Assembly: GCA_965178125.1 (NCBI GenBank)
Contig: OZ237743.1
Coordinates: 248,001-312,000 of the forward strand
From: Bilabrum cf. latius
Lineage: Eukaryota
DNA: 64,000 nt
Direction: 5' to 3'
Part shown: in pieces, positions 28,692 to 60,786 of the stretch
Layout of the letters: every line of letters starts with the position of its first letter
Numbering within the stretch: the stretch's first letter is position 1
The notes under the pieces: generated by a model
Databases searched by the model: none
Seen by the model: only the letters and a program-made list of their open reading frames with translations
What the model was told of the DNA's origin: nothing
Position numbers and translations under genes: made by a program

Positions 28692-29186
28692 ATGCGCACG
28701 CTGGCATCGCTTTGTCTGCTCACAGTGCTGTTGCCATTAGCTATGGGTGACTCGCCATCGAGAGCCCACCGAGTGCGCCGCAGGACTCGGACAACGGAGC
28801 TCAAGAAGTCTCCGTCGGTTATTGATCCCAAGCTCGACGCAATGCCGTCAGACGCCAGTGAGAGATTATTGGTCTCCTTCACTAGCTCGCTTGTCATACG
28901 AGCTTATACATCGTATCCTTGCGCCGACTTCGCTCTCATCGCAGACGATGCGGGCCCCAACGCCGCGCGAACCCACCCGCCGTTGTGCAGCAAGTGTGAA
29001 AGATCAGTTGCATCGCGCTTTCCTTTAAGATTTACTACTGAACTTGAATGTCACAGCACCAGGCACGTACACCCTGACGTGCATCCTAAGTTGCCAAAAT
29101 GCACTGCCCGCCGATTCAACTCCCGCACTAATGACCTGCGTACTAGTAGAGCGCACTCTGTATGCCCCCCTGCCTCGGCTGCTTGA
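28692..29186 (+). CDS. Possible small secreted protein (signal-peptide-like start, CxxC); 3' end uncertain
   Basis: MRTLASLCLLTVLLPLAMG hydrophobic leader; possible in-frame intron 28858-28944. The ORF end overlaps the convergent LRR gene. Confidence 0.3.
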   Translation: MRTLASLCLLTVLLPLAMGDSPSRAHRVRRRTRTTELKKSPSVIDPKLDAMPSDASERLLVSFTSSLVIRAYTSYPCADFALIADDAGPNAARTHPPLCSKCERSVASRFPLRFTTELECHSTRHVHPDVHPKLPKCTARRFNSRTNDLRTSRAHSVCPPASAA

Positions 29187-30632
29187 GCTGCGTCTAGCTA
29201 TTTACCTGACACGAGCCCTTTCCGTTCTGCCCCACCTGCCATCACCCCGAGCCGCAGTCGCTTCGCCAACTCTAGAGGCCTGCCCTCTGCTGCAGCTCGC
29301 CACACTAGCCCCGCATCCCGGTGAGCCTGCGCAGCAGTCCTATGTCGTACCAAGGCCCACAGCCTGGACTGCCTGGACTAGTAGTGCTGCAGCCTGGTCA
29401 GCATGAGAGGTACAGTTCTTGCATACTTACCAGGAACACATGAAGTGCGCCAGTCGTAGAACACTATGCGGGGATTGGCCACTACAGCATCCAGGTTCCG
29501 GTCGTGCTGGCGACTGAATTCAGCCTCATACCTCCAGGAATTGAGCCCGCTGTATCCGACGGATATCGACAGCAGCGCCCTGTTCCGCCTGATTGCAGCC
29601 CACAGCAGACATAACGGAAGTCGTGTTTTCTCCGGTATCATGTCATAGAACAGCATCAGGTGCCTGATACTCACGTTCTCACACACGATCCTTTCCACCT
29701 GTGCACCGAGGGCGTCGCTGGCTTCTGGCGACTTGGATATGAATGAAAGCAGCACCTGCCTCAGTGCCCGATGCGCCACCAGAGTATCAGCCCACGCCAC
29801 CAGCTATTCTTTGTTCACCACGCAGTCTCCCGTTGACAAATACCGAAGGCTTCTGTTGGTCAGCATGCCCTTTGCTATCGGGGCATTGCGCCGATACAGG
29901 TTTCTGTAGGCTGCCCCCAGAGTGATTCCAGAACGAGCATCCCACCCGAGCATACCCATCAGACTCAGCGCATACAAGCTGCACCGCGAGTCTCCTAGCA
30001 CCTACCCGAGCGACTCGAACAGATCCTGAGGGGCTCCTTCTAAGCACTGCCTACTACTGCTGCTCTGCAAGATGAGAGCCTCAAGGCGATTCGACCTTCC
30101 TGAATGCAGCATCGACGGAGCCAGTGCTGCCATGGCGCCTGGCTCCCACCTGCAGTCCCCCAGATGCAAGCAAGAGAGATGATGACCCTCAACGTCCAAA
30201 CATACCATCTCGCAAAGCAACCTGGCTGTCGGAACATCGATCGTCTCGTCAACCAGCCGCAGCGACTTCAACCGGATGCCATCCGAGGGCAGCAGCGCCA
30301 GTAACTGCCTGAAGCTTGCCATTCCAGATCGGTGCGGCATTGTGGCACTTGCATACCCCTGCCTGACCGCCCACAGGAACTGCCAAACCAGCGTGCACTC
30401 CGGCGCGATATCGTTCCTGCCTTTCTTGTATGTCTCGTGCATACCGTCAGAAGAAACCTGCTAAACTTACAAGATATATTTTAGTTTCGATGAAGAACTT
30501 GACCCCAACAAAAATGCGGTGCCGGGGGCACTCGGAAACTACTAGTGTTGGACAGTGTTTGCTCCTCACGATCGAGGTGATAGCCCTATACGGGGCACGA
30601 TAGACACCTGGCACAAGTTTCTCTTGGAGCAT
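29051..30632 (-). CDS. RNI-like/LRR-like protein, paralog A (short first exon plus intron)
   Basis: LRR-like segments LKSLRLVD, LSCLHLGDC, LEALILQ. In-frame TAGs at 30002, 29804, 29378, 29198; TGA 29051-29053. Colinear with paralog B. Confidence 0.7.
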
Positions 30633-31385
30633 GAATTTTATCATTTTGGCAAATCTTGGAGCCTACTGTCGTGTGTGCAGTGCTTAATGCTGCATGCTGT
30701 TTTCTGGTGATCCGGAGCCACATTCATGGTCACCCTAGGGCCTAGGCTATCCAATGAGTCAGGCTGCCACCAGGGGACTGCATCAGGTTGTTCCCGGCAT
30801 GCTTCGGCCCCTTTCTTGTAGAGGCCCTCTTGTACTTCTGCGCCTTCTTCTGGTCCTGATTCGGATAGTCTACCATGGACTCCGTCGATGGACCACAAGC
30901 AGCAACACCCCCACGAAGGAGCAGCCCAGCCTGCGGAGCCCGTGGCGTGAGCTCGCTGTCCTGTACGAGCTATCCAGCGCGAGCTCCTCCTAGGGAGATT
31001 GGTGTCATTAGCCGCTCTCTCTCACTCCTCCGCATCGCTACGTCGCATCTGATCCTACACCTCGAGCGGGTCCTGCGCCCACCGCGCGACCTCAATCTCA
31101 GAGACCTTGTTGGCCTCACCAACTCTAATGCTACAAATCCTCTTCCCACCTACGGACAAGGTGTTGCCGCGTTCTCCTTCTTCACAGAGCCATCCTCATC
31201 GCACAGACGCTTATCATCTCATTTGACGTCAACAACGAATCAGACTCTGTCTCCTTAAAACCATGCATACCCGAACCAGGTACAATGGGTGCTGCACAAG
31301 ACAGCATAACCACGATGGTGGACTTTTGTCCGCAATCATACAGATGAAAGATTCGTCACTTCCATATTGCATGCTGGATCTGGTT

Positions 31386-31495
31386 GAGGAGAATCAAAAC
31401 GCTTGTACCGTGCTGTGCAGAGGATCGTAGAGGGGGCGTAGAGGAGAATCAAAACGCTTGTACCGGGCTGTGCAGAGGATCCAAGAGGGGGCGTA
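31386..31495. repeat. 55-bp tandem duplication (2 copies, few mismatches) in the spacer between the LRR paralogs
   Basis: gaggagaatcaaaacgcttgtaccg...gagggggcgta starts at 31386 and again at 31441. Confidence 0.85.
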
Positions 31496-31600
31496 GCGGC
31501 AGGAGCAGAAGGCATCGCTGCACGCTGTGAAGAATGCGTGGAATAAGTACCCTGCACGTTGTCAGGTGCTGAGATGGCGAGGAACGCATACTATAGTGAT

Positions 31601-33194
31601 TCACGACACCAAGCACGAGAACGTGGGCATACCTTCTGTCAGGCCACGATCAATCGCCCTTCGGTTCACCTCTCGCGCAACTGACCGGCGCACTAGCAGC
31701 ACGCATTCCCTATGCCCGCCTGCTTTGGCCGCTTGCCCCGCGTCTAGCAAGCTGCCTGACACGAGACCTTGCCGTTCCGCGCCACCTGCCATCACCCCGA
31801 GCCGCAGTCGCTTCGCCAACTCTAGGGGCCTGCCCCCTGCTGCAGCTCGCCACACTAGCCTCGCATCCCGTTGAGCTTGCGCAGCAGTCCTATGTTGTAC
31901 CAAGGCCCACAGCCTTGACTGCCTGGATTGGTACTGCTTTAATCGAGGTAACATAACGGGCTCGACTCTCTCGTTCTTTTGGGTCGAGGCCACCGTGCAC
32001 CAGTCGTAATGTATAATACGGGGATTGGCCACTACGGCATCCAGATTGCGGTCGTTCTGCGGGACGTAGTACTATGGACTATAGTAGAATTCGTCTCCAA
32101 TACATCCGACCAATATCGACAGCAGTGCCCTGTTCCGCCTGATGGCAGCCCGCAGCAGGTGCAACGGAGGTGGCACTGGATCCCATCCCCGCTCCATGTC
32201 GTACAACAATATCAGGTGCCTGATGCTCACGTTCTCACGCACGATCCTTGCCACTGGTGCACCGAGCGCAATGCGGGCTTCGTTCGTCACAGGATGAAAG
32301 GACACAAGAAGCTGCCGCAAGGAATAGCTCGTGGCCAGAGCATCGGCCCACGCGACCAGCTGCTCTGTGTTCACTATACACTCGCCAGTCGACAAATACC
32401 GAATGCTTGTGTTGCTAAGCATGCCCCTGGCCACCAAGGCATTGCGCCGATACATGCAAGTCCAGTCCACGCCTTCAACCGGACCATAGGGGTGACTCCA
32501 TCCGAGCATGCCCACCAGGCTCAGCGCATACAAGCTGCACCACGAGTCTCCTAGCACCTATCCAAGCGACTCGAACAGATCCTGAGGGGCTCCTTTCACC
32601 GATGGCTCGCCAGTAGTGCTCTGCAAGAGGAGTGCTTCCAATCGATTCGACATCCCCGAGTGCAGCATCGACGGAGCCAGTGCTGCCATGGCGCCTGGCT
32701 TCCACCTGCAGTCCTCCAGATGCAAGCAAGACAAGCCATGACCCTCAACGTCCAAACATACCATCTCGCAAAGCAGCTTGGCGGCCGAAACATCGATCGT
32801 CTCATCCACAAGACGCAGCGACTTCAACCGGATGCCATCCAAAGGCAGCAGCGCCAGCAGCTGCTTGAAGCCTGCTATGCCCGATCCGGAAGGCATTGTG
32901 GCGCTGGAGTATCCCTGCTTGATCGCCCACAGGAATTGCTGAAGAGATTCACATTCGGGGGCAAAATCGTTCCTCCCTTTCTTGTAGCTTTCATGCATGC
33001 CGTCAGATGAAACCTGCATCGCATCACAACGTAAAGTGTCTTATAGAACAATAAATTGAACCCCAGCAAACATGCGGTGCAGCGGGCACACTTTGCAAAC
33101 AGTTCGCCCAGCGCCTCACGATCGAGGTGATGCTCCTATACGGGCTTCGATAGGTATCAGGTGTTGGCCATTCATATACCATGTAGTCAGCCAT
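31601..33194 (-). CDS. RNI-like/LRR-like protein, paralog B
   Basis: Highly similar to paralog A along its length, with the same intron position (SITSI|VSSDG). In-frame TAGs at 32558 and 32072; TGA 31601-31603. Confidence 0.7.
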
Positions 33195-33324
33195 GCTGGT
33201 TTAGCATGCAACTACCTGCGTCTTAGAAAATTTCATCAGCATTAAGGTAAATGAGGCATATTGTGGACGATTGCGGCGATCGGAGCCCTGACATCACCCG
33301 CTGGACGCATCTATTCGGTTCACG

Positions 33325-34476
33325 ATGGCAGCTGCCTGTAGGATGACTCGTACAGGCATCATAGCTGCTTCATCTCGACTAATTCCTCGTCTGGGTGGTG
33401 TTCGCGCCATTTCACAATCCGCAGCGTCTCTGCAGATTACCACAGCCAAAATCAAGGAGCTTCGAGAGCGATCTGGAGCTCCAATGATGGATTGCAAGAA
33501 GGCTCTCATGGATGATGAGGTTGGGGGAGATATTTAGAAGGCGTTTGATTGGTTGCGTAAAAAGGGAGTCGCAGTAGCTGGCAAGAAAGCCGGGAGGGCG
33601 GCCCAAGAAGGTGTTGTCTCCGGCGTGATCACCGACGACGAGCGATACGGCGTGCTTGTGGAAGTGAGCAGCGAAACAGACTTTGTAGCAAGAAACGCAG
33701 ATTTCTAGTACTTTGTGCAGAAGGTGTCGCGCACGGCCGTGGCGGCCCTGCCCGGAGCCGGCGTTGGCGAGGCATCTGCTCCGACCGCTGCTCCCGGCAG
33801 CGCGCTCGGCGTGATGGAGTGGCTGCAGAAGCAGAAGCTGGACGGAGGCGATCTGGTTGGTCGCGATTGCACCGTGGGTGAGGGCCTCCTTGACATGGTG
33901 GGCAAGATCCGCGAGAACCTGCTGTGCCGACGTGGCGCCGTCCTCGACGCGGGCGAGGGTGGGCTGGTGGTGCCCTACGTGCACAACGTGGTGGGGCCTT
34001 CGATGGGCTCCCTGGCCGTCCTCGTGGCCATGGCGCCCGCCCAGGGAACAAGCGGAAGCGGGAGCCCCTCCGACGAGAAGGCTCGGGCGGCCATGCGCAG
34101 CGCGGGCAAGACGGTCGCGCTGCACGTGGCGGCTGCCAGGCCGCTGGCAGTGGACCGGGACTCTGTACCCGCAGAGGCCGTGGAGCGGGAAGCGAGCGTG
34201 CTGGCGGCACAGGCCAGGGAACAAGGCAAGCCGGAGAAGATCGTGGAGAAGATGGTGCAGGGCCGCCTATCGAAGTTCTATGAGGAGTCGTGCCTCCTGG
34301 AGCAGGACTGCATGGTGGCTGACGGCAAGGTGGGGGAGATAGTGGCGGCTGCGGGGGAGGAGGCGGGCACTGAGCTCAGGGTCGTGGGCTTCCGCGTGCT
34401 GGCCAAGGGGGAGGTAGAGGAAGGGGAGGGGACGGGGGAGGAGGAGCAAGGGGACGAGACGGAGGGTAGGCAGTGA
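33325..34476 (+). CDS. TSFM: Mitochondrial translation elongation factor EF-Ts with an N-terminal transit peptide
   Basis: Motifs [50 protein letters not shown] and [27 protein letters not shown], continuous in one frame across TAG 33535 and TAG 33706; TGA stop. Confidence 0.95.
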
Positions 34477-34768: not shown

Positions 34769-37700
34769 ATGGATGCTATGCGAAAATTATTTAATACATC
34801 AGATAGTGACGACGACGACTCGCCAGTATCTGCGCCAGCGGCTGGCCGCAGCGCTGCAGCAGCAGACGTGAGAATGGCATTGCGAAACCATATACTTTGG
34901 CGCTGTTCTTGTCCATTCTACTCGCCTTTGCATGCTCTTAGCCGTTCATGTACAAATGTTTTGCGCAGGGAATTGAGTCAGGCCCTTCGCCACGGGCAGC
35001 AAGCGGCTTCTGTGGGCTAGAGAATCAGTGAGTAGGATCCAGAGTTGTATTCGCTCGCTATCGTGCGCCTGAAGCTGCTGCACTCGTAATTGATCGTCTT
35101 GAGAACTGCATTTGTTGCAATTTTTGTGCGTCTCGACCCGCAGGGGCGCGACATGTTACATGAACAGCCTCTTGCAGGCCTTGTTCATGACGCCGGAGTT
35201 TCGGAGCAGGCTGTACGGGCTGCCAATGGAGCACCTGCACGTAGACAAAGTAAGACGATTGTAGTGTGCGCTATTTTTCATCATTGCTAACTGCCTCAAT
35301 TGAAAGAGCTATTGCCGTCGACCTGACGATTCGTGCAGATGGAGGCCTACGAAGCTGCAGAGGCAGCGGCAAAGGCCGCAGCAGATGCCCCGGCCAAGTC
35401 CAAGTCCAGGTCCGGTGATTCCTCCGGCGACCCAGTGGAAGATGCCGAGAAAGGGTCAGAGGCTGCTCCTGCGCCAGCCCCGCCGAAGCCGCACCGTTTC
35501 CGCGAGATCATCAGCCTGGAGCTGCAGCGCCTGTTTGCTCGCCTAAGCATCCTGGACCGGAAGGACCTGGACACGACGGAGCTCACCCGAAGGGGCTTCA
35601 ACTGGACGGGAAACGAGGGCGGGGTGCAGCACGACGTGGTCGAGCTCAACCAGAAGCTGTACGACGCCATCGACAAGAGCCTGCTTGCCCTCAAAGAGCC
35701 CGCGGACCAAGACATCATCAAGAGCCTGTACACCCTGGACGGAGGCGCGCGCATGCAGTGCCTCAGCTGCAAGACCCCTCGGGACACCAAGGAATCCCAC
35801 ACGGTGACCAGCGTCCAGGTGCAGGGCCACGACGACCTGGTTTCCTCCCTGGCTGCGCGATGCAGGCCCGAGCTAATGGATGAGGTCAACTGCCCCGCCT
35901 GCGAGGAAAAGAGGCCTACCCTGCGGTGGGAGAAATTTGTGTCTGCGCCCCCGGTCCTGCTGCTGAGCCTGAGCCGGTTTGTGTTCGACATGCAGGTGCT
36001 GGACCGCGTGCGGCTCAACAGCAGGCTGGAGCTCCCGCTTGTGATCGACATGAGGCCTTTTCTTCCCGGTGGCACTGTCAACAAGCTGCAGGAACTGCTG
36101 GGCACGGCAGAATACCGCTGTGAGGAGGCTTCCAAGGCTGTGAGCGCGGCAGAAGGCGGCAAAGCCAAGGAGCAGGTAGAGGTTGCGATGGCTTCGGCGC
36201 GCGCCGTGGTGGACTCGATCAAGGCCAGGCTCGGGAAGGCCCTGCACGCCGCGCGCTCGTCCTGCATTTGGGCCTCTGGGCTGGCCACCCACGAGGGGCG
36301 ACTGAAGTCCGAGGCGACCCTTCGGGCCATCGAGGCCCTGCCGCGGGAGAGGCAGGCCCTCGTCTACGACCTGCACGGCGTGGTCATACACAGCGGCAAC
36401 GCGCACCACGGCCACTACACCGCGAAGATCAGGGACGTGCTCGGCGAGGGGATATGGACTGCTCCTGACGAGTCGTTCAAGCAGGCGAGCGAGTCGGTGG
36501 GGAAGCGAATGTTCGGCTCTGGCCATGTGTTTGGGCCAGGGGAAGGGCCGGTGCTGGCCTAGGGAAGCGGCGGCGACTGGGGAGGCAGCTCCGGCGGCGG
36601 CTCTGGCTCTGGTTCCGGCGGCGGGTCCGGTCGCGACGAGCTGCTTGCCGTGAAAATGCAGGCCAAGACAGACCCGTCCTCTCCGCTGAGGCACGTGCGG
36701 CAGGCCGTCGCGAGCCACGGCAAGGACCCGTCGACCGGGATCCGCAAGTGCAAGATCTCGCAGGTAGGCGGGGCCCTGGCCAAGGTTGGCGCCAAGAAGG
36801 GCTGGAACAAGCTTTACAAGCAGAAATGGGGCACTCTCAAGCGGTTTCTGGACGCTTGCGACGAGGATTTCGTGGTAGATGAGGACAGCAAGGAGGTCAT
36901 GCTGATCGGGGAGGACCCCAAAGGGACCGACGCCCAAGCGGATGACGGGTGGAGGCGCAAGGGGGACGGCAAGGCGGCCAAGACCGCCGACCCGAGCAGC
37001 AGCGGTCGCGGAGGCAACGGCGGTGATACAACAGGAGCAAAGAGCGGAGACGGCAACAGCGGATAGGCCCCCGCCCACCCCAGCGGCATGTCTCCAAAGG
37101 AGCTCAAGGAGACAGCCTTCAGGGCAATGCACACCCGCCTTGCCGCGAGGTACGGGCGATGGTTTTCCTTCGACGACAGTCGCGTCACGCCCGCCGGCAT
37201 CTCTGACGTGGAGGACACGTTCTCCGGGTCTGCTTCGGCATATCTTGTCTTTTACCGCAGCAGGGCGCTGGGCCATCCGGCTGTGGAGGGCAAAGGCAAG
37301 ACGCCACTGAACGGTACCTCTGGCGCTGCGCAAGAAGAGGAGTGGCGCAAGCTATTTGCGGATGCCTCTTTGCTGCCAGACGCCCAGAAGAAGATCGACG
37401 AGCACAAGGCGGCGGTAGCACGACACATAAGCGACGCAGAGTACGACTGCCTGGAGGATCCCCCGGAGATGCCAGAGGATGAGAAGGCCGAGGCTGGTGT
37501 TCCTTGTGGTGCCGGGGCGGCGGCGGCATCATCCGGTGCTGAAGGAGCCGCAGGCGATGAGTCTGGCGCCAGCGCAATTCGTTGGAGGCCCGAGGCACTG
37601 CTAGAGTACATCAGCACGCACCCCAAGATAAGCGCGCCGCCTGCAGCACCTTCTTACTGGCTGAAGCGGATCCGGGCGGAGAACGAGACCCTTTTGGCCC

Positions 37701-40700
37701 ACAGGGCGGTGTACGAGCGACTCAGCAACCAGATGACCCTGACTGTGCTGCCTCCGAGTGCGCTGGCAGTAACACCCAAGGGACTGACGCTCAGGGTCAA
37801 CCCTACGCTGCCCACAGGGGATGCCGTTATGCCGCCGGTGGGTGACGCGCAGGCCTTTGCCTACAAACCCTGCGCCGACCGCGCGGTCGAGGTGACAATA
37901 GACCTCCGCCGGCCGCTCAAGCACCTTCTCACCACGCTCAAGCACGCCTTCAGCGACGCGAAGGGGCTTGGTCTACCCGCCTCGCAGCAGGACTGGCGCC
38001 TTAATCTCTTGGGTGAGACTGAGGTCGAGGAGGCCGACGGGGACGGCGGCAGGGGCCCCGCGGCCTCGGGAGCCGGCGCTGACGACGACTCGAAGCCCCA
38101 ACCAGCTGCCCTCAACAAGTCGCTGCATCCGTTGAGCGGGGTCCCCGACGACACTCTGCTGGGCAAAATCGCGCAGACGATGGGCATGTCAGAGGCCGAG
38201 GCCAAGGGCTTCAGCTCTGGCGACAGAGCGCTCGCAACCCTGCTCGCGCAGCGACGTGTGGTCAAGCTGCAGCAGGAGGTTGAGCTGCTGCGAGCCAAGG
38301 GTAAGCCCACAGCTGTGGTCCAAAAAGACCTTGAGGCTGCCAAGCAGACCGCCGTCAAGGGCCCCGCTGTGCCCGACGCCCTGGAGATGGTCCTGGAAAC
38401 AGCAGCTGAAAAGCCCATGCTTGAGTACGCAGAGACACTCGGGCACGGGGCCGTTCTCTTGATGTGGGACGGCATCCGCCTTGGTGACACGATCGTTGTG
38501 CCCGGGGGGGAGGGCGAGCCCGTGCAGCTCTCCGGGGAATACCTGTGGCAGGACAAGGCCGAGCTAGACGAGGCAGCGGATCGGGCCGGTGGCGGCTGGA
38601 AGCAGGCTGGCGGAGGTGGCGCAGGCGGGCCTGGTAAGCGCAAGACGCCCAGTGCCCCCGTCCATCGCACGCCAGTCAGCCTTGTGGTACCAGCCACTGC
38701 CACGCTGCCAGAGCTAAGGGCGGCCTTTGCGCAAAGGGCTGGCCTCGTGGATGACGCCGGGGGTGCGGCAGCAGGTAGCGTGGCTGCTTGCGACTCGACT
38801 CCCCTTGGTGTGCCCTCGGCCGCGGCGATGGCAGCAGGGAAGAACCTGATCCTGTCCCGCGTGTCCTACGAGCGCGGCAAGAAGAAGCTGAGTGTGGTGC
38901 ACGACAAGAGCGTGGGACCGCTGCACGCACTGCGGCCCGCAACAATCAAAGAATACCAGTTCTTCAATGCTGCCACGGAGCTGCTGATCGAGCAGAAACC
39001 GCCAGCAGGCAGAGAGCAAAAGGGAATCCACGCGGTGCCGAACCCACTCGCAGACGCTGAGATGCAGAGAAGGGCCTTGCAGGCCGAAATCACCGTGCTG
39101 TGGCAGGCCGGGGGCTTCCCTCCATCGGGACCGAGGACAGAGAAGGACATCAAGTCCAAGCACCCAGAGGTGGAGAACGTTCGCCTCGACATCACGAGGG
39201 ACGCGGACGGCATCGTGGTCGAGGCTTCTGCCCGGCTGACCATGACGGTCTCGCGTCAGAATCATGTGTCTGACGTGAAGCAGATCGCGGCTGGTATCCT
39301 AGGAGCAGACCTTGGCAGCATCCTGGGCGGCGGACGGTGCAGGCAAAACCAGGACGGTGCCCTGGTGGATGACGAGGAGCTGACCATTTCCCAGGCGGGC
39401 TTCGGGTCCGGCGAGAACTCCTTGCAGGTCGAGCCTGGCGAGGCGCTGGCCAAGGGTGAGATCAACATCAAGTACCAGCTGCTGGTGGGCAACGATCTCG
39501 GCCCGCTTCCCAGGGGTGGGTACAGGAGCCAGGAGCGAGAGGTGGTCGTGGACCAGGGGATCTCACTGGCGGATCTCAAGGTGGCCATTCTCGCCAATTC
39601 CGCCAAGCACGGGGATGACTTGGGCAAGGGTGGCGTTGAGGCAGCCCGCGCCGCTGACTTCGCCACGCTCGCTCAGAACCGTCGGCTGCGTATGAGCAAC
39701 TGGATGGGTGAGGCCACCGACCTCCTGAAGAAGGAGCACATTCCGTTGGCGCGGTCCGATCTGAGCGGGGCATCTACAGTGCTGCTTGAGGAGGGCAGGC
39801 TGCCTGTGCAGGGCGAGCTTCACCTGAACTTTGCCCTGCTGTGCCCGCAGTACTCGCAACGGGTACTTGCGCTATCGCCGGAACAGGGCGGTCTTCCCAG
39901 CGGTGCCCTCGTGGAGCTTGACGAAGAGCGGAAACAGGCGCAGGCGATCGCCACAGAGGAGCTGGCCAGGCTGGAGGAAGGGCGGAAGGTGCTGAAGGAG
40001 GCCGACGCTGGCCAGGCAGCGAGCGACGGCGGGGACGGCGGCGGCTTGCTTGGGTGGGCGGCATCGGGGCTTGCTGCCGCGGTGTCTGCAGTGGCAGGTG
40101 GCCCGGCTGGGGACGGGGGCAGCACAGATGTCCCGAGGGATGCCCCGGCTGCGTCCAGCGACGGTGCTGCGCCCGTAGCGGCGGCGCCCGGTGAGGAGCT
40201 TCCTCCCCCAATGGTGAGGAGGCACTCAGCAGACAGGAACCCTCCCAGGCAGTCGGAGCCGCTCGACTACATCCGCCGAGTGAGGGCTGCCTCCCTGTGG
40301 CCCCTGCCGCGCGTCGTTGCCAACGAGAGCTGGACGGTCCGCAGGCTGAAGGAGACCGTGCTCGAGGACCCGCACGTGTGCGCAGCCTACCTGCGGGCTC
40401 AGCGCCCCGGCGAGATGTTCGACCCGTGGGCTGGGAGGTTCGTGCAGCCAGCGCCAGCTGAGCAGCCTGCAGGGAGTGATGCTGCGGCAGCAGCCAAGGC
40501 GGACAGGGAGAGCAAGGAGCAGTATTCTTCGTCTGGTGAATCTCCTGCCGACGTGCAAAAGGCGGCGGCGGCCGCCAAGAAGGACCCGGTGCAGGAGCTG
40601 CGAGATGAGGTCGATCATCAGGTGGCTACAGCTGACGTCGACCCCGAGGCCTCCCGCCCAGCCGCCCTCTCCCACTGGGGTTTCACCCCGGAGCACGTCC

Positions 40701-42124
40701 GCATCCGCGTGGTGGGCCAGCACGAGGTACCGGGCCGTGTGCTTAAGCCGGACCTTAGCAAGCTGCAGCGGTGCGGGGTAAAGCAGAGCCAGGTACTTCT
40801 CGCCATCGACATCCTACCGAGGGAGGAGCCGGACGAGGACGAGGTGCGTGGAGACGAGGTGTTCCTTTGGGTGCAGAGGAGGCGACCCAACCCGTTGGTG
40901 ATGGCGCGAAGGGCCAGGGAGCGTCAAGTGGCCAAGCTTGACGACGCCAAAGCAGCGGACGCCAAAGGCAAGGGGAAAGGCAAGGGCAAGGGCAAGGGCA
41001 GCGGGAAAGGTCGCGTGGAGGCGAGCATGGAAGACGTGGAGGACCTAGCCGTGAGGGCATCGTCTGCTATGGACACCAGGGGGTCCGTTTCGCACACGGT
41101 GGCAGTCGACAAGGAGCTGGCTGAGGCACAGGAGGTTATCTCTGCGTCCAAGCAGGCATCGCAGGGTTCCCAAGAAGGCGAGGGCGATACAGCAGATTCA
41201 GCAGCGGCAGCGGCGGCAGGTGATTCAGGGGATTCAGGAGAAGTGCAGCCTTTCTAGCTTGGCAGCGGGCCATTCAGGCCGCTGCAGGCCATCAGCGGAT
41301 AGAACTCGCCGATGTGGCCGCTGGAGTGCGTCAGGGTGCGGGCCTCACTCAAGGGGCAGCCCCTGCTCGCAGACCTGCTCGACGCCCTAGCTTCCTCTGA
41401 AACTTGCAAGGGGATGGACATCGGCAAGCTGCGGATCGCTAGGCTGCACCAGGTGAGACACCAGTGGAAGGAGCTCACGGACCAGGCGCAGCTGGAGCAG
41501 CTGCCCAAGGTGAGGGAAGAGCAGGAGAAGGTCGGGGCATCGTCCTCAGCCGCCGCTGCAGCCCCTACCGGCAGCAATGCTTCGGGTCGGAGGCGTGGGC
41601 GGCGCCGTGGGGGCAACAAGAAGAAGAAGTTTAAGACCTTGCGGGACCAGCCGTGGGGCACTCAGTGCGGTGACGTCATAGCGGTGATGCACGCGGATGA
41701 CGACCCGGAAGGCACCGACGACTGGCTCCGAATCGAGGACTACTCGTCTGCCGTGAAAACCATGCGCAAGAGGCAGGAGAAGGCTCTTGAAAAGAAAGCA
41801 GCGCGTTGGGAGGGAGGCGGAGGTGGGGGGGGTTCTAGGCCCAGGCAGAGGGAGGTCGCATTGCACATCGGGTACGACTCTGACGAGTTCGACTTCGAGC
41901 AGGTGCACCAGGAAGACGACGGAGACGGTGATGATGACGCCGGATCTGAGCCTGGTGCCGCTGGCAAGGAGGACTCTGGCGATACCGGTGCCAGTGCAGA
42001 GGATGTCGCGGCTGCTGGGGGAGCGGCCGCCGCCCCTGCAGAACCTCCAGGTGCCGAAGGCGATGAGGACGCCGATGCTCGAATGGCGAGGGAGCTGCAA
42101 GCTCAGTTTGACGCCGAAAATTGA
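34769..42124 (+). CDS. USP40-like ubiquitin-specific protease (C19) with C-terminal UIM-like DARMARELQAQF; exons 34769-34867, 34969-35027, 35144-35249, 35339-42124
   Basis: Spliced Cys box GLENQGATCYMNSLLQALF, QHDVVEL, His box GVVIHSG..HHGHY, then WFSFDDSRV and SAYLVFYR. The insert WNKLYKQKWGTLKRFL recalls USP40. In-frame TAGs at 36560, 37064, 41255, 41300; TGA end. Confidence 0.9.
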
Positions 42125-42329
42125 TTTTGCAAGACATACACAAGTATTAGTTCTGAAAGCAGACTACTTGCTTTTATCGACGTCATTGGGCAGACACGGG
42201 GCAGACTAGTTGCAGTCCTTGAGCGAGCCTGTAATACCAATTCGAATTTCAAAGCTTTACTCCTATTTTCATGCAGCGTGCACAATCCAATAGCAAGCAC
42301 CGGGTCACTCGCAGCAGAATGCAAGCGAA

Positions 42330-43892
42330 TCAAAGACAACCTCGCGCATGCCTACTGAGATCCCCTGCCCGCCCGAATGACTTGCCGCACTCCATGCACT
42401 CGTGCTTGCGCTCGCCCAGATGCACAGTGGACATGTGCGTCCTGAGACTGCCTGCCCGCCCGAATGACTTGCCGCACTCCATGCACTCGTGCTTGCGCTC
42501 GCCCAGATGCACAGTCCTCGTGTGCGTCCTGAGACTGCCTGCCCGCCCGAATGACTTGCCGCACTCCATGCACTCGTGCTTGCGCTCGCCCATGTGCACG
42601 GTCCTCATGTGCGTCCTGAGATTGCCTGCCCGCCCGAATGACTTGCCGCACACCATGCACTCGTGCTTGCGCTCGCCCAGATGCACAGTCCTCGTGTGCG
42701 TCCTGAGATTGCCTGCCCGCCCGAATGACTTGCCGCACACCATGCACTCGTGCTTGCGCTCGCCCAGATGCACAGTCCTCATGTGCGTCCTGAGACTGCC
42801 TGCCTCCCCGAATGACTTGCCGCACACCATGCACTCGTGCTTGCGCTCGCCCAGATGCACAGTCCTCATGTGCGTCCTGAGGTGGCCTGCCTCCCCGAAT
42901 GACTTGCCGCACACCATGCACTCGTGCTTGCGCTCGCCCAGATGCACACTCCTCATGTGCCTTCTGAGTGAGCCGGCCTCCCCGAATGACTTGCCGCACA
43001 CCATGCACTCGTGCTTGCGCTCGCCCAGATGCACAGTCCTCGTGTGCGTCCTGAGACTGCCTGCATGCCCGAATGACTTGCCGCACACCATGCACTCGTG
43101 CTTGCGCTCGCCCAGATGCACAGTCCTCGTGTGCGTCCTGAGGTGGCCTGCCTCCCCGAATGACTTGCCGCACTCCATGCACTCGTGCTTGCGCTCGCCC
43201 AGATGCACAGTCCTCATGTGCGTCCTGAGACTGCCTGCCCGCCCGAATGACTTGCCGCACACACTGCACTCGTGCTTGCGCTCGCCCAGATGCACAGTCC
43301 TCATGTGCGTCCTGAGATTGCCTGCCTGTCCGAATGACTTGCCGCACACACTGCACTCGTGCTTGCGCTCGCCCAGATGCACAGTCCTCATGTGCCTACT
43401 GAGATCGCCTGCCTGTCCGAACGCCTGCCCGCACACGCTGCACCGATGTTCTACCCCGATTGTGCCTGCCTGTCCACGCCGTCTCTTCGCCCTCGATCCG
43501 CTCTGGCTGTCTGCTGACCTCGCCTATGCCTGCCTGCCTCGCTTCTGGCCCACAGAGGCATCGGTGCCGCCGCTTGCACCTACCCCTGAGCTTGACTGCA
43601 TTGAAGATTGCTCTTCTTGCGGCAACATTGCGCTGCTGCTGGAGTGTCCCGACGCCACGATGGACGTGGGAACAGCTTCGGCTCGATCGCTGGCTTGATC
43701 TCGGGTCCTACCTTTCCCACCTGCCTCTCGCCTGCCCCACTAGCGACTGCTGGTCAATGATAGCGATGCAGCAATTGTGCTCATGCGGCGGTCGGGAACC
43801 TCGACATCGCTTCCACCAGAGTCGCTGTCGCTTGAGTCGCTGCTGACGAGATCGATCACCTCCCCTGAGCATGCACCTGCTGCTTGCTCCAT
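42330..43892 (-). CDS. C2H2 zinc-finger protein with 13 tandem fingers and an acidic N-terminus (SIM-like EVIDLVSSD)
   Basis: Repeated HECxxCGKSFGxAGxLRTHMRTVH units. The N-terminus from ATG 43892 joins the array via TAG 43740 and TAG 43524; TGA 42330-42332. Confidence 0.9.
42350..43440. repeat. 84-bp coding minisatellite, ~13 copies (zinc-finger array)
   Basis: Near-identical units ccgaatgacttgccgcac...gcactcgtgcttgcgctcgcccagatgcacagtcctc with a period of 84. Confidence 0.95.
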
Positions 43893-44264
43893 GGCTTCCT
43901 GGCAGTATTTATATCCAGTATTGACTGCTGATACGCAGCCAGCCAGGTGGCTGCCGACGTCAGAATGACAGGGAATACGAGCTTTACTATGCACGCCCTT
44001 TTCTTGTGTACCTGTTCGACGGTCAGTTCTGATTCGCTCCAACTCAACCCTGTATCTAGAAAGGCTTTAGTTGTGGATGCTGCAGTCGAAACAGTATCGA
44101 TGAAACTGACAACGCGTCGGTGAGATCGATCCACTCTGGTCCGGTTCAGGCTGTTTTCATCTTCACACCTTGAAGGTGCTGGGCCTGGCGTGGCAGCCAC
44201 GCTTACTTGGAACATCAGCTTCACAGGAAGCAACCAGGCCACGCGCAACCGACCACATCCCTCC

Positions 44265-45394: not shown

Positions 45395-48300
45395 TCACTT
45401 GATAGTAGTCTCATCGGAAATTTGCAAGGCATCTCCAAGGTCGCCCTTCGTGCGAGCAGCAGCTGCCTGCCTGCGCATTCTCCGCATCATCATGTCGCGG
45501 CGCACGCGGAACACCGGCAGCACCCTCCTGGCCCAGCGCTGAATAGCAAGAATCCGAGAGTACTTTGTGTTCCGCTGCTGCACGTTCGTCACGCAGAACA
45601 GCAGGTCATCTGCTCCGATTGCTGCATCGTACGGCGGGCTCGTGTACACGTACGGCAGGGCCCTTCGCTTTGGTACCCACCAGTTGTTGGGCAACCAACG
45701 CATCATGCGGGGCCCCAGCTGGCCATACCGCCCACCTGGCAGCGGCCGGTTGCTTGCCTAGGGGCAAGACTCGTTGCGGCGTCGCCTTCTGCTCTCGTCC
45801 CGGGCGGATCCACCCGAGCCTATCGCACCGCTGGCTCTAGTGCTGCCAATGCCACTGCCACTGCCACTGCCACCTCCTTCCGGTGACATGCCACCAGAAC
45901 GAAGCAAGGCGCGCACAGCAGCTACTGCTCGCCGCTTAGCCACAAATCTTACAGATACATTCTGCAGCCTTGCTTCCGCTCTTGCTGTTTGGCTGCCCAG
46001 CGATCTCGCACCTGAGCCACTGGAGTGCACGCCCTGACTCATGCGAGTGAGGGTTCGCCCGTGCCTGAAGATCGCTACCGGAGTCAGCCCGTACTCTTGC
46101 TGCATCCAGGCACACACGGCCCCATAGCGAGGCATGGGCCACGCCCACGGGCCCCACTCGTCTCCAGACAGAGCAGCTGCGGCCACGCCGTGAGGGGTCG
46201 CGCCTCCTGCAGGCGGGGGCCCGTGCGGGTCGGCCGACCTCGCGTTCTTTAGGATGCGGTCGGCTTCCTTGACGGCCTGCGCGTAGGCAGCCTCCCTAAT
46301 TTTCTGGCTGATCAGCACGGAGGGGTCATACCTGGGACGCTGGGCCACCTGGAAGCCGTACCTCTTCTGCACCATTCCGCACGGCCCGACGCAACGGCGC
46401 GCGGCGTCATACGGTAGAGACACCTGTACAACCCGCCCGTCCACATCAGACAGCAGCCCAGTGATCACCTGCGGCTTCAGAGGGTCGAACAGGGCCGATG
46501 CAGTCAGGGCTTCCGCGATGGTTGACGTGTACACGGAGCCGTTGGCCACCTCGGGCTCGACCGCAGCAAAGGAGGCTTCCGTGGAGCCAACGGTGGGAAA
46601 TAGCTCGGCAGAGAGCTGCTTTCCCTTGTGGGCCTCTACCAGTTCTTCGTCAATACGAACCAGCTCGCAGGCGAGCTGGCCCTTGCGGCCATCGCGCAGC
46701 CCTCTACTCGCCAACTCAGCGCGTGCCCTGCTGTCTGAGGACTAAGTGTTGGTCATTGCCGCCTCTGTCGCCTCCTCCAAGACAGCCTCAGCATCCCGAA
46801 GTGCCTGTTGCTTTGCCCTGTGGCGAGTGCGATGCACCGACGACAGGGATGCAAACGGATCGCAGGTCGAGCGAAGCATGCAGCATGCGAACCCAATGCA
46901 GCATACGAGCCCAAACAGAGAAGCAAACACGTCGCAGCACTCGTCGTAGTCCACCATCCACGCGTACTCTCCGCAGCAGCAGTTACAAGAATTTTCTTCT
47001 TCTTCTTTGCTGGACTCGTCTTCCTTGTCGCCATTGTTGCCGTCTTCAGAGCCCGTGGGATCCCCTTGCGACTCCTTGCCTCTCATAGCAGTACCACTCC
47101 CGTTGCTCTTTCGACCGCCATCAGTCGCACCAGTTCTGGACGCTGGGCCATCCAATACGAAGGGGGGCGGGTGCTGCGCCCTGGAGAGCGCCTGGCTTTG
47201 CTACCCATTCAAGTCGAACAGCACCCTTGAGACCTCGACTGGGTCCTCCCTCATCGAAAACAGCTGCTGCTGGTGGGTAGGCCGCTTCGGGACGGGAGCA
47301 GGACTGCTGCGAGCCGCTGATGAGTTGACCACAATTGGCCCCGCATCGATCGCGGCTGCAACGTGCGCGATGGAGCTTGCGTGCGGGCTGGAGGCAGGTG
47401 TCGCGAGTGTGGGCAATTCCCTATGGCCCTCTGCATCGATCACTTCCTCCATTGCTTTGCTGAAGTGCTTGCCATCGTCGATCTCAAGCTCCTCCTCTCC
47501 CACGTCGGGCTCGTCCATCGTGCATGACTGCGCATCGTCGTCGTCAATCTCTTGGCCAGCCGGCTCAAGGTGCTAATGCTGCTGGCCACTGCTCACCTCC
47601 ATCGCGGCCGATCCTCTGCTCTGCGGTCCACGAGATGTCACCACAGAACCGTGATAGACCTCCCCGTGCGCCCCGGAAATCATGGAGTCGTGCACCTCCA
47701 TGGCTGCGTCGTGGTCCGTGGAGCGCTACAGCAGTCGGGCATTCGGCTCTAGGTCTCGGAGAAATCGTCTGCCTGCCCTGCGAAGGCAATTTGCGATGGA
47801 ACCACAATTGCGCACCTCGTCTACGATGTGAGTAGCGGCAGGTGCGTGCTCAAAGAAATGGGCGCTGTGAGGTGCAGACATGCCCGCGTCTCTCATGATT
47901 GACAGCTTCTGCTTTGCTAGCCAGCGCACCTCCAAGATTGGCCTCATCCTGATGCGAGACCAATACAAAAGCTGCTAAATGTCCAGACTGGGCACAGAGC
48001 CCGTTCTCTCGACCAGCCTAGAGGCACTGTGGTAGTCCAAGCGACCGGGCACTACGGCCAGTTGCCGCTCATCGCGGGCCGTGCGAGCCACATTGATGGC
48101 GTCGTGCATCGCAGCCAGTACGCTGTCTTCGCTTAGCGGCGCCGATCCGGACTCGGAATGAGTGCGCACAAGCTAACCCAGCATCGTACTTGTGCCTGCA
48201 TGCTGTACTTTTGTGTCCAGACCCTTGCCTGAAGAGCGCCTGGCCGATGGGCTGCTGAGGACACGGCGGGGCTGCCCGGCCCGTCGCCGCGACGCCGGTC

Positions 48301-51300
48301 CGCTGTGCATTGGCGCCACTGCAGCATACTTAGAGTCCACGCTTGCCTGGGGTTCATGCATCTTAATGAACCCCTGGATCGACTCGTCGTGAAGCCGTGC
48401 TGCCGTAGCAACGGCAAGAGAAGGGATGCGCGATTGCGGGGGCACTGCCAGGCCCGTGCTGCTGGTCCTGTGGCCTGGCAGACCGCTCAACATTTGCTGC
48501 CTGGCATAGTGCAGGAACGGCAGCTCAAACATAGTCAGTTGTGCCCGCACAAGCCACTCAACGGCCTCCCTCTCCCCAATCTGCGTGGCATGCATCGACC
48601 TGGCTCTCGACACGGCCCCTGGAGCGGACAGGGCATGTGCCGTGGCAATCTACTCGCGTGACCTGGCAGCTGTCTTGGAGGTGTACTTCGACTTCGTCTT
48701 CCAAAACACGAGCATTTGGCGCAGCAGATCCACCGCAGGCCAGTGATGCGCGCGACTCTGCGTGGTTCCTACTGCGTCAAGCTTGCCCGCGGATGTCTTC
48801 GGCTGCTGCAGCAGAAAGGCCAGAAGCGGTGTCTGCCCCCTCGCCGGGCGGCTCGCGTTCGCTGCTGATTTAGGGGGGAATGCGCGGGGCACTGGTGCAG
48901 CACCGGGGTCACTCGCTCCAATGCTGCTACTCCCATCTCCGTTGGCATGACTGGATAATTGCAGACCAGCCTTGGTGGCAGCATCCGCGCGCATGGCCTT
49001 CAGAATCCTCTCACCTTCAGGCACCTCCGTACCCGACACCTCCAGAGAGGCACCCACAGTCCAACGGGGCGGATTGGCACGAAGGTGCTGCGCAAATCGA
49101 ATTTCAGACGCAGCAGTGACTGCCAGCAGCGCGGATCCCATCCTCTGGGTGGTGACGCGGGACAGTGCTGGGCGGCAGTCGTACGAGCTGGATTGTCCTT
49201 GCTTTCGGCTCCCGTGCACCGGTGCTCTGGCATGGGCCCGTATCCTGCTGGCGGACTCGTCCGCCCTCTTTGCCCTCGAGGTCGCTCCAACCTGCCGCGT
49301 GCTGCTGAGGAAGCGAACACTCTCCGTGCGGGTCAGCTCCATGATGGCAGGCGGGGCATTGGCGCCGAGAATGGCCCGAATCGTCTGCAAGCAATGCAGC
49401 GCAAGTGCATCGCTGGCACTGTCTGCGTTCCTCTACAGCGCCTCGATGTGAGACTGGCGCTCCTGCGCAGAGCTTTGACCGCCATCATCGTCGGCACCGT
49501 CGGCCCCGCCATCTTTGGGCGCGTCACCGCCGATCGGACCGGTCGCAGCGGCCACTTGTATGGATCTGGCTCGCGCTCCCGGATCGGCCAGAATCAGCAC
49601 CCTCGCTGCTGTGTGGACCCCCGCCCTCCCGAGATCCATTGGGTCGTACGGCGTCCCGTGCACAAAATACAGGGACGGTCGCGGCGTCACCGGCAGGATA
49701 CTCGGCATCTTTTGTCTGCGGCTCTGCCTGCGGCTTGGCGGGGACAACTGCGCTCTTCCCACGGCCGAGCCAGGCGGTGACATGGCTCCCTGCACGTCGT
49801 CCCCGACGCCGTACCCGCCCTCATTCTCCTGTCCTTCGCTGTTCAGATAACCGGCATTGAGCCCCGTCGTGTCAATCTGGGCCGCAGTGTAGCCAGCGGT
49901 GTGCTCATGCATGGACGGCGCCTTGCCAGCTGTCGGTCTTCCTGACCACCACCTGTTGGGGCGATGCATCCGCTGCCCGAAGGAAGGCGTGAATTGAGCC
50001 CACTCTCTCCTCGTTGGAGCCCTGGGATGCAGCACCACGATGGCAGGCACGTGAATGGAGCTCATCATTGCCCGCACGATCACGTGAAGGGCGGCATACG
50101 GAGTCGTTTCGGAGCACAGCACTGCCACGTGCCCGCCGTGCATGAGCAGGGCGGCGGGTGGGGACACGCTCACCGGGTCGTTCTCGACGTCAGCGCAGAC
50201 GCTATACCGCAGAATCGATTCCGCCATTCGGGCACGGCGCTTTCCCACGCTCTGTCGCAGCCACTCGTGCGAGTTGGAGCCTGCGACTGCGGTGGGGCCC
50301 AGAGATCCGTGGGGCTTGTGACTGCCTCGTCCGCTTTTTCGTGGGCTCGCCCCAGCAGGTGATGACTTTGCCGGTTGCTGTTGCTACTACTGCTGCTGTT
50401 GCTGCTGCTCCCCTTGACTGCTCTTGCCCAGCCCTCCAGCGGTGGCCTCCTCACCACCAACTCCAGCCGCCGTCAATAGCCCCTCGCCGCCCATTCCTGC
50501 GTTCTGCTGCGATGCATCGTCTCGCGCTGCTTTTCCCTCGGCGTCGATCTCGTCCGCTTGCTGCTCTTGCTATTCGGGTTCTTGGGACACTTCCGAGCTC
50601 TCATCAGCATCCAAATCCTCGTCACCGGAGTTCTCTTCATCGCTGTTGTTACTGTCGCTGCCTTGCAGGTCGGCACGCTCGATCGATCCACCTGCTAGAC
50701 TGCCTTCAGGGCTCTCATCGTCATCAGTTGCACCCCCACCATCCTCACCGTCCTCGTCTTTCCCATAATGATCCGAGTCAACACCCTGATTGGAGGTCTA
50801 GAACTGCGACTGGCTGGCAGCGAAGTCGCTGGTGGCAGCGCCCCCAAGCCCGGAGACTTGTCCTGACACCCCTCCCGCGCTCCCCCCAGCCTTCCCACCC
50901 AGCCCGCTGCTGCCCATCCCACCCACCACCTCTTCGGCTGCGCCAAGCGTCAGCCGATCAGTGACAGAGCCCAGCGCCATCAGCTGCTCCTCCAGCTCAG
51001 CTGCCTTTGCCTCCACCTCGCGCTCCAAGTCGCCGTCGGTTGTTGCCGATCCGTCCGAAATCTCGCTGCCGCTGTCAGAGTCATCGATTGGTACGATCTC
51101 CACCGGTCCACCACGCCCTTTTTCGTCACCACCACTGCCCCCTGACCCCACAGCCAGCCGCTTCTGACTGCTCAAATGAGCTTGCGAGGATGACGGGCGG
51201 TCAGCTGCACCGCCACCAGCTTCCCCACCCGGTGGCGAATCGTCGTCGGCCGAGCGACCCTCCCCAATGCTAGAGTCTGCCACCTCTTGCACGCCCTCAC

Positions 51301-54300: not shown

Positions 54301-56147
54301 AGAAGATAAAGATAACGATCACAAGCCTCGAGACCGTGTGGTTGGGAGAGTAGTCGCCATAGCCCACGGTGGACAGCGATATGATCACGAAGTAGAACGA
54401 CACAAAAGGACTCAAGACCTCGTCCTCGCACCGGCCATCCACGGCCACAAACGAGTAGGCACCGTCATCGCACCGGTACAGAGTCCATAGGGCAGAGGGC
54501 ACGGTGGAGTCGATGGGGAGCTCACCGAGGAGTTCAAGCACGTACACGGTGGTGCTGATCACGTAGAGTGCGGCGAACGTGTTGATGCCAAAGGCCGTGA
54601 TCCTCCAAGTCGCTGACCGGACCCACTCCTCCCCTCGAGCCTCGGCCGCGGCCGCTGCGTTGCCGTCCAATGGGTCAAGCTCTACGGGGCTGTCCAGGCT
54701 CTCCGCATTCCGCAGCACATCCAGCTCCTCCTCGTCCTCCAGCGTGTAGCAGACCACGCAGCAGTATCGAGCCACGTATTGCACCCAACAGCTGCTAGGC
54801 CCTTCTCCAGAGCCGCCGTCTTCCTCGTTAGTTCCCTCTGCCTTGCCCCACTGCTGGGCGGGGCGACTCTTTGCAGAGCTCCCTGCGCCTGTTCCGCTCG
54901 GCGGTGCGGTTGCGACGAGCGAAGAGACTTGCTGCACGCCCGCCCCGACTGGCTTGGACGACGTGCCCGTGCCTACTGAGCTGGCTACCCCGCTGCTTAC
55001 GGTGCTGGGCTTGCCCTGCCCAGCGTCCGCCCGATCGGCCAGCTCTTTGGCCGCCTTGTCGGAGTCCCTTGCCACGCTGATGGCTTCCTGCTCGCGCCTG
55101 TCGGTCTTGATCGCCTCGTCGACCGCCTGCTTAGAGACGACGCAGCAGCAGGTGAGAGTTTCCGGGGGATGCACTCCGCACAGCCCCCCGCCGCACAGGC
55201 CGTCGTCTGTGGCCGGCGGCTTCCTGCGGATGATCTGCTCGATGACCGTGACGAGCTCGCGCATGTAGAGGGCTCTGACGAACGCGAGAGAGAACCATGT
55301 GCGACTCGCAACAAACGGAATGCTTCCACCATCGACCTCGTCCGGTGGGAGGCAGCGCTGGTCCGCGACGCTCCAGAGGCTCAAATCCCCGACGTCTTCG
55401 GGCCGATCTCCGGCAGCTTGGCCGATGTACTCGGTCGAATCCCCCGTCGAATCCAGCAAGGACCACGCGCACACGCTTTGGACCTGTATAAAGAAGCTTC
55501 CAATAGTGAGTACGTCGATAATAGTTCCAAGGTGCACCATTGCGTCGAGCTTCGGGCGCTCGGCGAATCGAACTATCAAATTCACTGCAAATAGGAGCAC
55601 GCACACAAAGTGCACCCACATCTCCCACTAGCTAATCGAAAATGAGCTACCCTCTACCGTTAGCAATACACAAACGACCTGCGGAAAAACCGAAGAGACA
55701 TGGAGAGAGCGGATAGCTGAGGGTTCAGAGGAAGATAGCTGGCAACTCAGCCGTAACTGATTGAATACTCACGGTCGAGGGAACATTCTGAAGCATGATG
55801 CGCAGAAGATTTGCCATGAGTGGATGCCTACTGTATGCCCCGGTCACTTGTTTCTGCAAAGCCTGGTCTGCTTCGCGTACGCATCGACATAAGGGTCGGC
55901 ATAGGCAGTCATAGAGTGCGACTGCTGGGATCAGCGCAGCAATCGCGAAGACAGTAACAAAAAGTTGATAAAATACAAAGTCCCACGAGAGCACGCAAGC
56001 AACGCCATCGAGCACTGAGTTTCCACAGAACTTGGCCAGAGGGTTGCTCTCAAAGAAAGACGGCAGATTCTCTTCAGCGCCAGGGATCCCACTCGATTCA
56101 TTGGACGGAAGATCTTCCAGCAGGTAAACTCGAAGAAAATCTTGCAT
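45395..56147 (-). CDS. Very large (~3550 aa) BK/Slo-type potassium channel with RCK domains and long insertions; intron 55679-55772
   Basis: Pore FYFVIISLSTVGYGDYSP, S4-like WFSLAFVRAL, RCK segments HIVVMG, FLRELYHP, VGVPGLPALLTNL, EYKSGASQEIY, GTPYDPMDLGRAGV and RALPYVYTSPP. One frame with 20 TAG and no TAA/TGA until TGA 45395-45397. Confidence 0.88.
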
Positions 56148-60617: not shown

Positions 60618-60786
60618 TTTGGTTGATATGTACCTGTTCATTCGGCGCGTCGCTCTGCGCTGGACCGCCGGCGTGGATACTCCCTGGCAATTGTAGCGTG
60701 CGAACCGGAATGCAACCGAAACGTACGTGACGCGCGTACGCGCACGCCACCGATGATACATTTCACTAGCAGCCGAAACGGGGAGG

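Follow-up and report, generated by a model that had tools for sequence, protein, structure and literature searches.

Does an in-frame TAG in a housekeeping translation factor mark a damaged gene, or does it specify an amino acid? The question is raised by a single gene for a mitochondrial-type elongation factor Ts (EF-Ts), at 33325-34476 on the forward strand of the 64,000-nucleotide stretch analysed here (the window, G000:C9:248001-312000), which is part of a eukaryotic assembly of 48.6 Mb in 111 contigs. By sequence reading, this frame carries TAG at codons 71 (33535-33537) and 128 (33706-33708) before ending in TGA (34474-34476), and reads through the two sites in stretches of 14 and 18 residues (protein letters not shown). 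Translated with TAG as Gln, it yields a protein of 383 amino acids with no intron, against approximately 307 in bacterial homologs. An earlier note on this DNA had described both TAG codons, and had proposed that the residue adjoining the ETDFVxxNxxF motif is Gln; codon 128 does indeed face Gln in 117 of 120 homologs. The first TAG is placed differently, as the column at codon 71 contains 113 Glu, five Asp and two Gln (120 homologs). Hence EF-Ts alone cannot separate Gln from Glu, and while the implied reading of TAG as Gln named the right residue, its first site lies in a Glu column; the amino acid was fixed only by evidence beyond EF-Ts, from a test on dynein genes.

The gene itself has the features of an intact EF-Ts. 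Its EF_TS domain was matched by the Pfam family over residues 109-362 (1.9e-45), while EF-Ts_N matched at 2.3e-05, below that family's cut-off; the EF_TS domain with its ETDFV motif, the N-terminal domain and a presequence-like start are all present. This start is an N-terminal extension of 37 amino acids (33325-33435) containing five Arg, five Ser and neither Asp nor Glu, a mitochondrial-presequence-like composition that suggests the protein is targeted to the mitochondrion. The window gene is the sole match of the EF_TS profile in the genome (one candidate scored), such that a genome-wide search for a second, TAG-free copy returned none, and the view that this single, intact copy is not a pseudogene was upheld. 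Both TAGs lie in the more AT-rich part of the gene, with GC3 being 0.48 in the first 130 codons (33325-33714) and 0.83 downstream.

The earlier note was silent on scope, which is larger than EF-Ts: TAG is a sense codon in the nuclear code of this genome. When TAG is treated as sense, the longest frames in the window rise from 1396 codons to 3457, 2515, 2265 and 1748 codons, whereas the same treatment of TAA brings no gain over 1396. Fourteen long frames, picked by hand from 61, total 16,837 codons, of which 97 are TAG; each of them terminates with TGA. A BK-type potassium channel frame (45395-55768, reverse strand) has 20 TAG in 3457 codons, two of them within a poly-Gln run; a frame without a Pfam family (624-8171, reverse strand) has 23 in 2515 codons; the last exon of a ubiquitin hydrolase (UCH) gene (35327-42124, forward strand) has four in 2265 codons; and an ankyrin-kinase frame (60757-63468, forward strand) has five in 903 codons. 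Two local paralogs on the reverse strand, A (29051-30466) and B (31601-33040, with two in-frame TAG), are identical at 326 of 468 aligned residues (29051-33040). The TAGs of A face CAG, CAA, TAG and TTG in B, with one further TAG preceding the likely start of A, and across the pair TAG is swapped with CAG and CAA, as well as with TTG and with GCT at one site each.

Two side observations concern repeated sequence in the window: the paralog pair (29051-33040) belongs to a multi-copy family with no Pfam match, and the C2H2 zinc-finger array at 42235-44066 has many copies elsewhere and a very high contig depth.

Frames opened by TAG are neither the product of chance nor specific to one gene. A crude gene caller, the first version of which gave only 13 frames, called 44 frames of at least 250 codons, covering 250 of 464 kb on two contigs; 40 of these 44 genes contain TAG, which accounts for 274 of their 2477 Gln codons (11%). 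The TAG share of Gln codons drops with higher GC3 across the 44 called frames (rho -0.48), and both TAG and CAA are slightly commoner near gene starts. The largest sample came from dyneins, for which 19 paralog stretches comprised 61,977 codons and 271 TAG. These frames are interrupted only by TAG, never by TAA or TGA: 18 of the 19 stretches, on 12 contigs, run for 3224-3333 codons without TAA or TGA, while containing between one and 48 TAG each.

These dyneins also identify the amino acid. In columns conserved at 70% or more, TAG faces Gln at 17 of 24 sites, Arg at three, Glu, Val, Ile and Leu at one each, and Tyr at none. Control codons in the same columns behave comparably, with CAG facing Gln at 142/208 and CAA at 17/25, and GAG facing Glu at 277/321; the seven non-Gln residues among the 24 conserved TAG sites represent the same rate as that of CAG. 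The residue profile of TAG correlates at 0.985 with that of CAG and 0.952 with that of CAA, the next best being 0.81. Against human DYNC2H1, 17 TAGs counted by eye in part of the alignment face eight Gln, five Asn, two Glu, one Val and one Ala. UAG can therefore be read as Gln in this nuclear genome with a high degree of confidence, and an equally firm case can be made for a nuclear code of the code 15 type, with UGA as the main stop codon and UAA as a minor one.

This stop assignment is visible at gene ends. The 44 called frames end 34 times in TGA and ten times in TAA, with introns possibly cutting some of them short, while 12 ends fixed by homology (EF-Ts, ERG24, eRF1, GlnRS, GluRS and seven dyneins) comprise ten TGA, two TAA, those of eRF1 and one dynein, and no TAG. 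Coding score drops after 8/253 TAG, 37/1692 CAG and 2/398 CAA codons, compared with 41% at TAA and TGA ends. Treating TAA as sense too, as in the UAR=Gln code (table 6), was rejected, as frames were not lengthened, the dyneins are free of TAA, and TAA ends genes.

An exclusive role as a sense codon could nevertheless be incomplete, with UAG mostly Gln but ambiguous, either because it ends some genes or because the tRNA(CUA) described below receives Tyr part of the time by way of its C1-G72 pair. Four called frames have a TAG two to seven codons ahead of TGA, hence a few TAG gene ends are possible; C1-G72 is a eukaryotic Tyr determinant (listed in Table 1 of PMC9976931, as far as its accessible part shows); and a TAG in GluRS, selected by eye, lies opposite Trp and Tyr in the two GluRS of known structure. 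However, TAG is not depleted before stops, its frequency over the final ten codons (4/440) being a little above that in the body of genes (0.31%), and CAA is likewise raised there (7/440). The coding score does not fall after TAG either. For context-dependent stop and sense use of the Condylostoma and Blastocrithidia type, in which the dual codon would be depleted ahead of true stops and would also end genes, the small sample shows no depletion, no TAG among the 12 anchored ends and the four frames just described. As to Tyr, it is the majority residue at none of 83 dynein TAG sites at which the majority residue reaches at least 40%, and of the four Tyr determinants A73 and G34 are missing from tRNA(CUA). 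Ambiguity on either count is unlikely.

There is one eRF1 gene (on contig C35), as two other profile matches are Pelota, including a locus (L051) that was tried as eRF1 and rejected. Its four exons, as deduced from GT-AG ends, would encode 438 residues with two in-frame TAGs and a TAA end. The first, TAG48 (human Q44), lies in a column with Gln in 89 of 95 homologs; the second, TAG73 (human L69), in one with Leu in 89 and Gln in six. Together with this L69Q, three changes surround the GTS and TASNIKS motifs: S60V (found in 1/95 homologs), N30D (0/95) and G29A (2/95). The eRF1 motifs read the stop codon, and L69A raises UAG readthrough, according to the accessible part of PMC5304391. These substitutions may underlie blindness to UAG; yet eRF1 retains T32, E55, S70 and YxCxxxF, which would be compatible with the ambiguous use of UAG outlined above. 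Separately, the first TAG is the last codon of the inferred exon 2, at the donor site (L032:1418-1420), UAG readthrough is needed twice in the N domain of eRF1 itself, and a close relative (P0253) has an eRF1 with GSGTS and L69Q.

Gln incorporation at UAG requires a tRNA, for which there is one candidate. Among 48 tRNA matches (63 of 780 candidates scored) a single tRNA(CUA) gene was found, at G000:C23:907607-907679 on the reverse strand, adjoining a frame with four TAG in DNA of 61% GC. It is single-copy and folds as a cloverleaf. A short-arm pattern search gave no second tRNA(CUA) in 50 rows, 30 put through ARAGORN and 20 judged by eye; tRNA(UUA) was found neither in the tRNA search (63 of 780 scored) nor in the short-arm CUA/UUA pattern search, a pattern that misses introns and long arms. 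A GlnRS gene was also found (L218). Over the 751 codons read it uses 16 Gln codons, none of them TAG, and it has FG where E. coli (K401-R402) and human share KR. R402 of E. coli GlnRS reads G36, and plant GlnRS has G at the R402 place; the FG pair carries no weight in the argument here.

These components suggest a mechanism. On this reading EF-Ts is an ordinary, intact single-copy gene for a mitochondrial factor, whose cytosolic translation yields Gln71 and Gln128; GlnRS would charge tRNA(CUA), which would pair with UAG but not UAA, and eRF1, altered beside its stop-reading motifs, would compete poorly at UAG. The same code could instead be achieved through near-cognate reading of UAG by tRNA-Gln(CUG), with the CUA gene being silent or a pseudogene. 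The genome does have two tRNA-Gln(CUG) genes, and its only CUA gene, a candidate identified by sequence, is unlike a recent copy of a Gln tRNA, sharing 10 and 9 of 20 stem pairs with Gln tRNAs. Against this stand the perfect stems, intact T loop and trailing T run of the CUA gene, as well as the very efficient decoding that up to 48 TAG in 3333 codons would presumably demand, making near-cognate reading a rather improbable substitute for decoding by tRNA(CUA).

The source of tRNA(CUA) is less clear than its likely function. Among 22 nuclear tRNAs its closest match is Tyr(GUA) (50/73), followed by Gln(UUG) (47/75) and Gln(CUG) (44/73). It shares with tRNA-Tyr six of seven acceptor pairs, including C1-G72, four of five anticodon-stem pairs, including G27-U43, and a variable loop of five bases. 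These 10/12 acceptor and anticodon stem pairs exceed the maximum of eight in all 245 non-isoacceptor pairs, albeit in stems chosen post hoc; across all stems, the 13/20 shared with Tyr is reached by 5/245 pairs and is nothing unusual for the top result among 23 comparisons. With Gln(UUG), tRNA(CUA) shares the D stem (4/4) and G73. Eukaryotic Tyr identity depends on A73, C1-G72, G34 and U35, and bacterial Gln identity includes G73, G2-C71, G10, U35 and A37, the eukaryotic Gln entry being blank in Table 1 of the source (PMC9976931, accessible part). Of these, tRNA(CUA) has lost the Tyr elements A73 and G34, and has the Gln elements G73, G2-C71, G10, U35 and A37. Engineered amber suppressors are similar in that a CUA anticodon and G73 on a foreign scaffold accept Gln, as with a yeast amber tRNA-Tyr that E. 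coli GlnRS charged with Gln in trace amounts (PMC1483225) and a tRNA-Lys changed from A73 to G73 (PMC9976931); they differ in being artificial, in using E. coli GlnRS and in their weak acceptance, as described in the accessible parts of these papers.

Hence origin from tRNA-Tyr is plausible but falls short of an even chance, and an old, diverged tRNA-Gln is as likely a source. The full scenario, in which the first nuclear code change in stramenopiles took place in a GC-rich, UGA-preferring genome through a tRNA-Tyr(GUA) that became tRNA(CUA) by G34C, then passed to GlnRS through the change of A73 to G73, a Gln-type D stem, G2-C71 and A37, is more tentative still. If true, it would mean that a stop codon was captured as Tyr, then moved to Gln by a change in tRNA identity, in contrast with the usual assumption that a tRNA-Gln mutates. 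A search for Tyr and Gln tRNAs in relatives, to set beside these, yielded none. As a separate observation, approximately 170 bases ahead of the tRNA-Tyr gene there is a 32-base duplicate of the 3' half of this tRNA (L010:1335-1366).

That UAG might encode some other single residue, such as Glu, Tyr, Lys, Leu or pyrrolysine, is exceedingly improbable. This would suit the Glu column at EF-Ts codon 71 and the Tyr-like scaffold of tRNA(CUA), which ARAGORN labels Pyl from the anticodon alone; but in addition to the near absence of Glu and absence of Tyr from the conserved dynein columns, the log-likelihood over 200 of the 271 dynein TAG sites is best for Gln, with Lys lower by 138, Glu by 144 and Tyr by 378, TAG is swapped with CAG and CAA between paralogs and species, and the genome contains no PylS match.

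The codons were also found in what appears to be RNA. Contigs from three runs (X5, X6 and X7) skip three GT..AG stretches ahead of the UCH last exon (34867, 35027 and 35249), which a contig from another run (X4) retains; hence X5-X7 probably derive from spliced RNA. These three belong to two studies and carry other organism labels; their RNA origin is deduced from splicing, with no run on record as RNA. Their EF-Ts contigs (33321-34091, 33325-34347 and 33327-34306) have both TAGs unchanged, with no other letters and no gaps, so the claim that neither site hides an intron was confirmed, and UAG is probably present in the mRNA, unspliced and unedited, at the level of contigs in RNA-like runs. 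Such contigs drop rare variants and show no level; the assembly may itself have been built from the DNA-like X4, hence X4 is not independent, and the small-share runs X8-X12 contribute nothing to this evidence. Other origins of the TAGs, whether misassembly, pseudogene decay, very short introns or C-to-U or U-to-C editing, gain something from this dependence and from the single transition that separates TAG from CAG, but have a negligible probability given the identical, gapless letters from two other studies, the exclusive interruption of frames by TAG over at least 3224 codons in 18 of 19 dynein stretches, the single-copy status of both EF-Ts and eRF1, and a TAG site of its own in a second species.

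The reassignment of UAG to Gln can then be compared with known codes, as far as these are described in the accessible parts of the cited papers. It is rare for a nuclear code to separate UAG from UAA, with UAG=Gln alone reported for one fornicate, Iotanema spirale (Panek et al. 2017, PMC5304391), and three ciliates, Hartmannula sinica, Trochilia petrani and Protocruzia tuzeti (McGowan et al. 2024, PMC11687900). Iotanema resembles this genome in retaining UAA as a stop and in the proposed combination of a tRNA(CUA) with changes to eRF1 (PMC5304391). However, it belongs to an unrelated lineage in which UAA is dominant, eRF1 has T32G, and the tRNA is only predicted, from Gln(CUG) (PMC5304391), no CUA tRNA being found for Iotanema in the accessible text (PMC5304391, PMC11687900); here UGA is dominant, T32 is kept alongside S60V, G29A, N30D and L69Q, and a tRNA gene is in hand. 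The ciliates share UAG=Gln without UAA, but phyllopharyngeans prefer UAA as a stop, as opposed to the mostly UGA ends at approximately 60% GC here, and no suppressor tRNA(CUA) is described as detected in H. sinica or T. petrani (PMC11687900). The UAR=Gln code of Tetrahymena, ulvophytes, hexamitids and Amoeboaphelidium (PMC11687900) likewise has UAG=Gln via tRNA(CUA); in the present genome, by contrast, UAA is excluded from the sense codons and the searches above gave no tRNA(UUA). Genetic code 15 in gut phages (TAG=Gln; PMC9523058) has the same codon table, but operates in a bacterial translation system, rather than a eukaryotic nucleus with eRF1.

Judging by marker genes, this genome probably belongs to a bicosoecid stramenopile allied to Cafeteria. 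The closest named match of its eRF1 is Cafeteria roenbergensis (69%), ranked behind another match at 88% and one identical record, and in a tree of 33 rows, 32 of which were hand-chosen from 120 matches, it joins the Cafeteria group at 93/83, a value below the tool's bar, with Bicosoecida sp. CB-2014 outside the Cafeteria fork. A cox1 search (120 rows) gave best matches of 94% and 89%, with Saprolegnia at 78%. Contig C111 is the mitochondrial genome, of 38.4 kb and 24% GC, using code 4 with tRNA(UCA) and a short nad11; these traits match the description of bicosoecids in the accessible part of PMC6723347, hence a bicosoecid is probable. Both C. roenbergensis (PMC6972860) and Cafileria marina (PMC6723347) likewise have a mitochondrial code 4 with tRNA(UCA), a short N-terminal nad11, a mitochondrial genome of about 40 kb (42.8 kb in C. 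marina) and intron-poor nuclear genes, although C. roenbergensis has a genome of 34-36 Mb and approximately 70% GC, and the sole variant code mentioned for it in the accessible text is mitochondrial. The 11 tRNA calls on C111 (L052-L054, L074; Phe, Tyr, Arg, Trp, Lys, Gln, His, Glu, Met, Cys and a weak second Met) are fewer than in Cafileria (PMC6723347, accessible part), hence heavy tRNA import is implied; its long frames end 28 times in TAA and once in TAG.

The code has apparently arisen independently, in what seems to be the first case among stramenopiles. A literature search, outside whose scope lay most subscription journals and supplements, found no nuclear code change in any stramenopile, and stramenopiles are unmentioned in the accessible part of PMC12153298. 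At least one related species would have the same code: a metagenomic eRF1 locus (L107), with a TGA end, is 82% identical in nucleotides, 54% at third positions and 93% in protein, and has TAG at one codon where this eRF1 has CAG, which suggests a sister species and a clade-wide code. Of 70 metagenomic eRF1 loci, 49 matches were checked for in-frame stops, with TAG found in L107, L131 and L132, TGA in L156, and both TAA and TGA in L162; none reached 80% identity to the Cafeteria protein. This case brings together a contiguous genome, a candidate tRNA, eRF1, GlnRS and a sister species, making it possible to test how eRF1 drops UAG yet keeps UAA and UGA, and where a suppressor tRNA comes from. 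A UGA-preferring genome of 60% GC does not fit the AT-pressure account of other recodings, and standard annotation would truncate most genes in this lineage.

Several further observations were made in passing. The metagenomic eRF1 of L131 and L132, with in-frame TAG and TAA, a TGA end and the motif AESIKS, come from an unrelated UAR-recoding organism, probably a ciliate. The eRF1 labelled Symbiodinium sp. KB8 (among P0250 and P0252-P0254) groups with the Cafeteria clade, which probably reflects contamination of that record. A CAT anticodon is carried by at least six nuclear tRNA genes (L023, L036, L040, L048, L049 and L050) that resemble tRNA-Pro(UGG) at 13/20 stem pairs and match neither Met type; four have a G1:A72 mismatch and one sits 316 bases from the Pro gene, so that they may represent a further switch of identity or a repeat derived from a tRNA. 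The nuclear genome has two distinct tRNA-Ile(GAU) genes (L009, L045), where eukaryotes mostly use AAU, and a short dispersed repeat on at least 12 contigs (L078, L079, L082, L088, L093 and others), which is not a tRNA, occurs among the tRNA-pattern matches. Finally, the assembly contains two 18S types that are 83% identical, one of approximately 1700 nt in a tandem array on C12 (L076) and the other a single copy of 1802 nt on C95 (L075); the second type, which we take to be dinoflagellate-like, likely comes from a second eukaryote in the sample.
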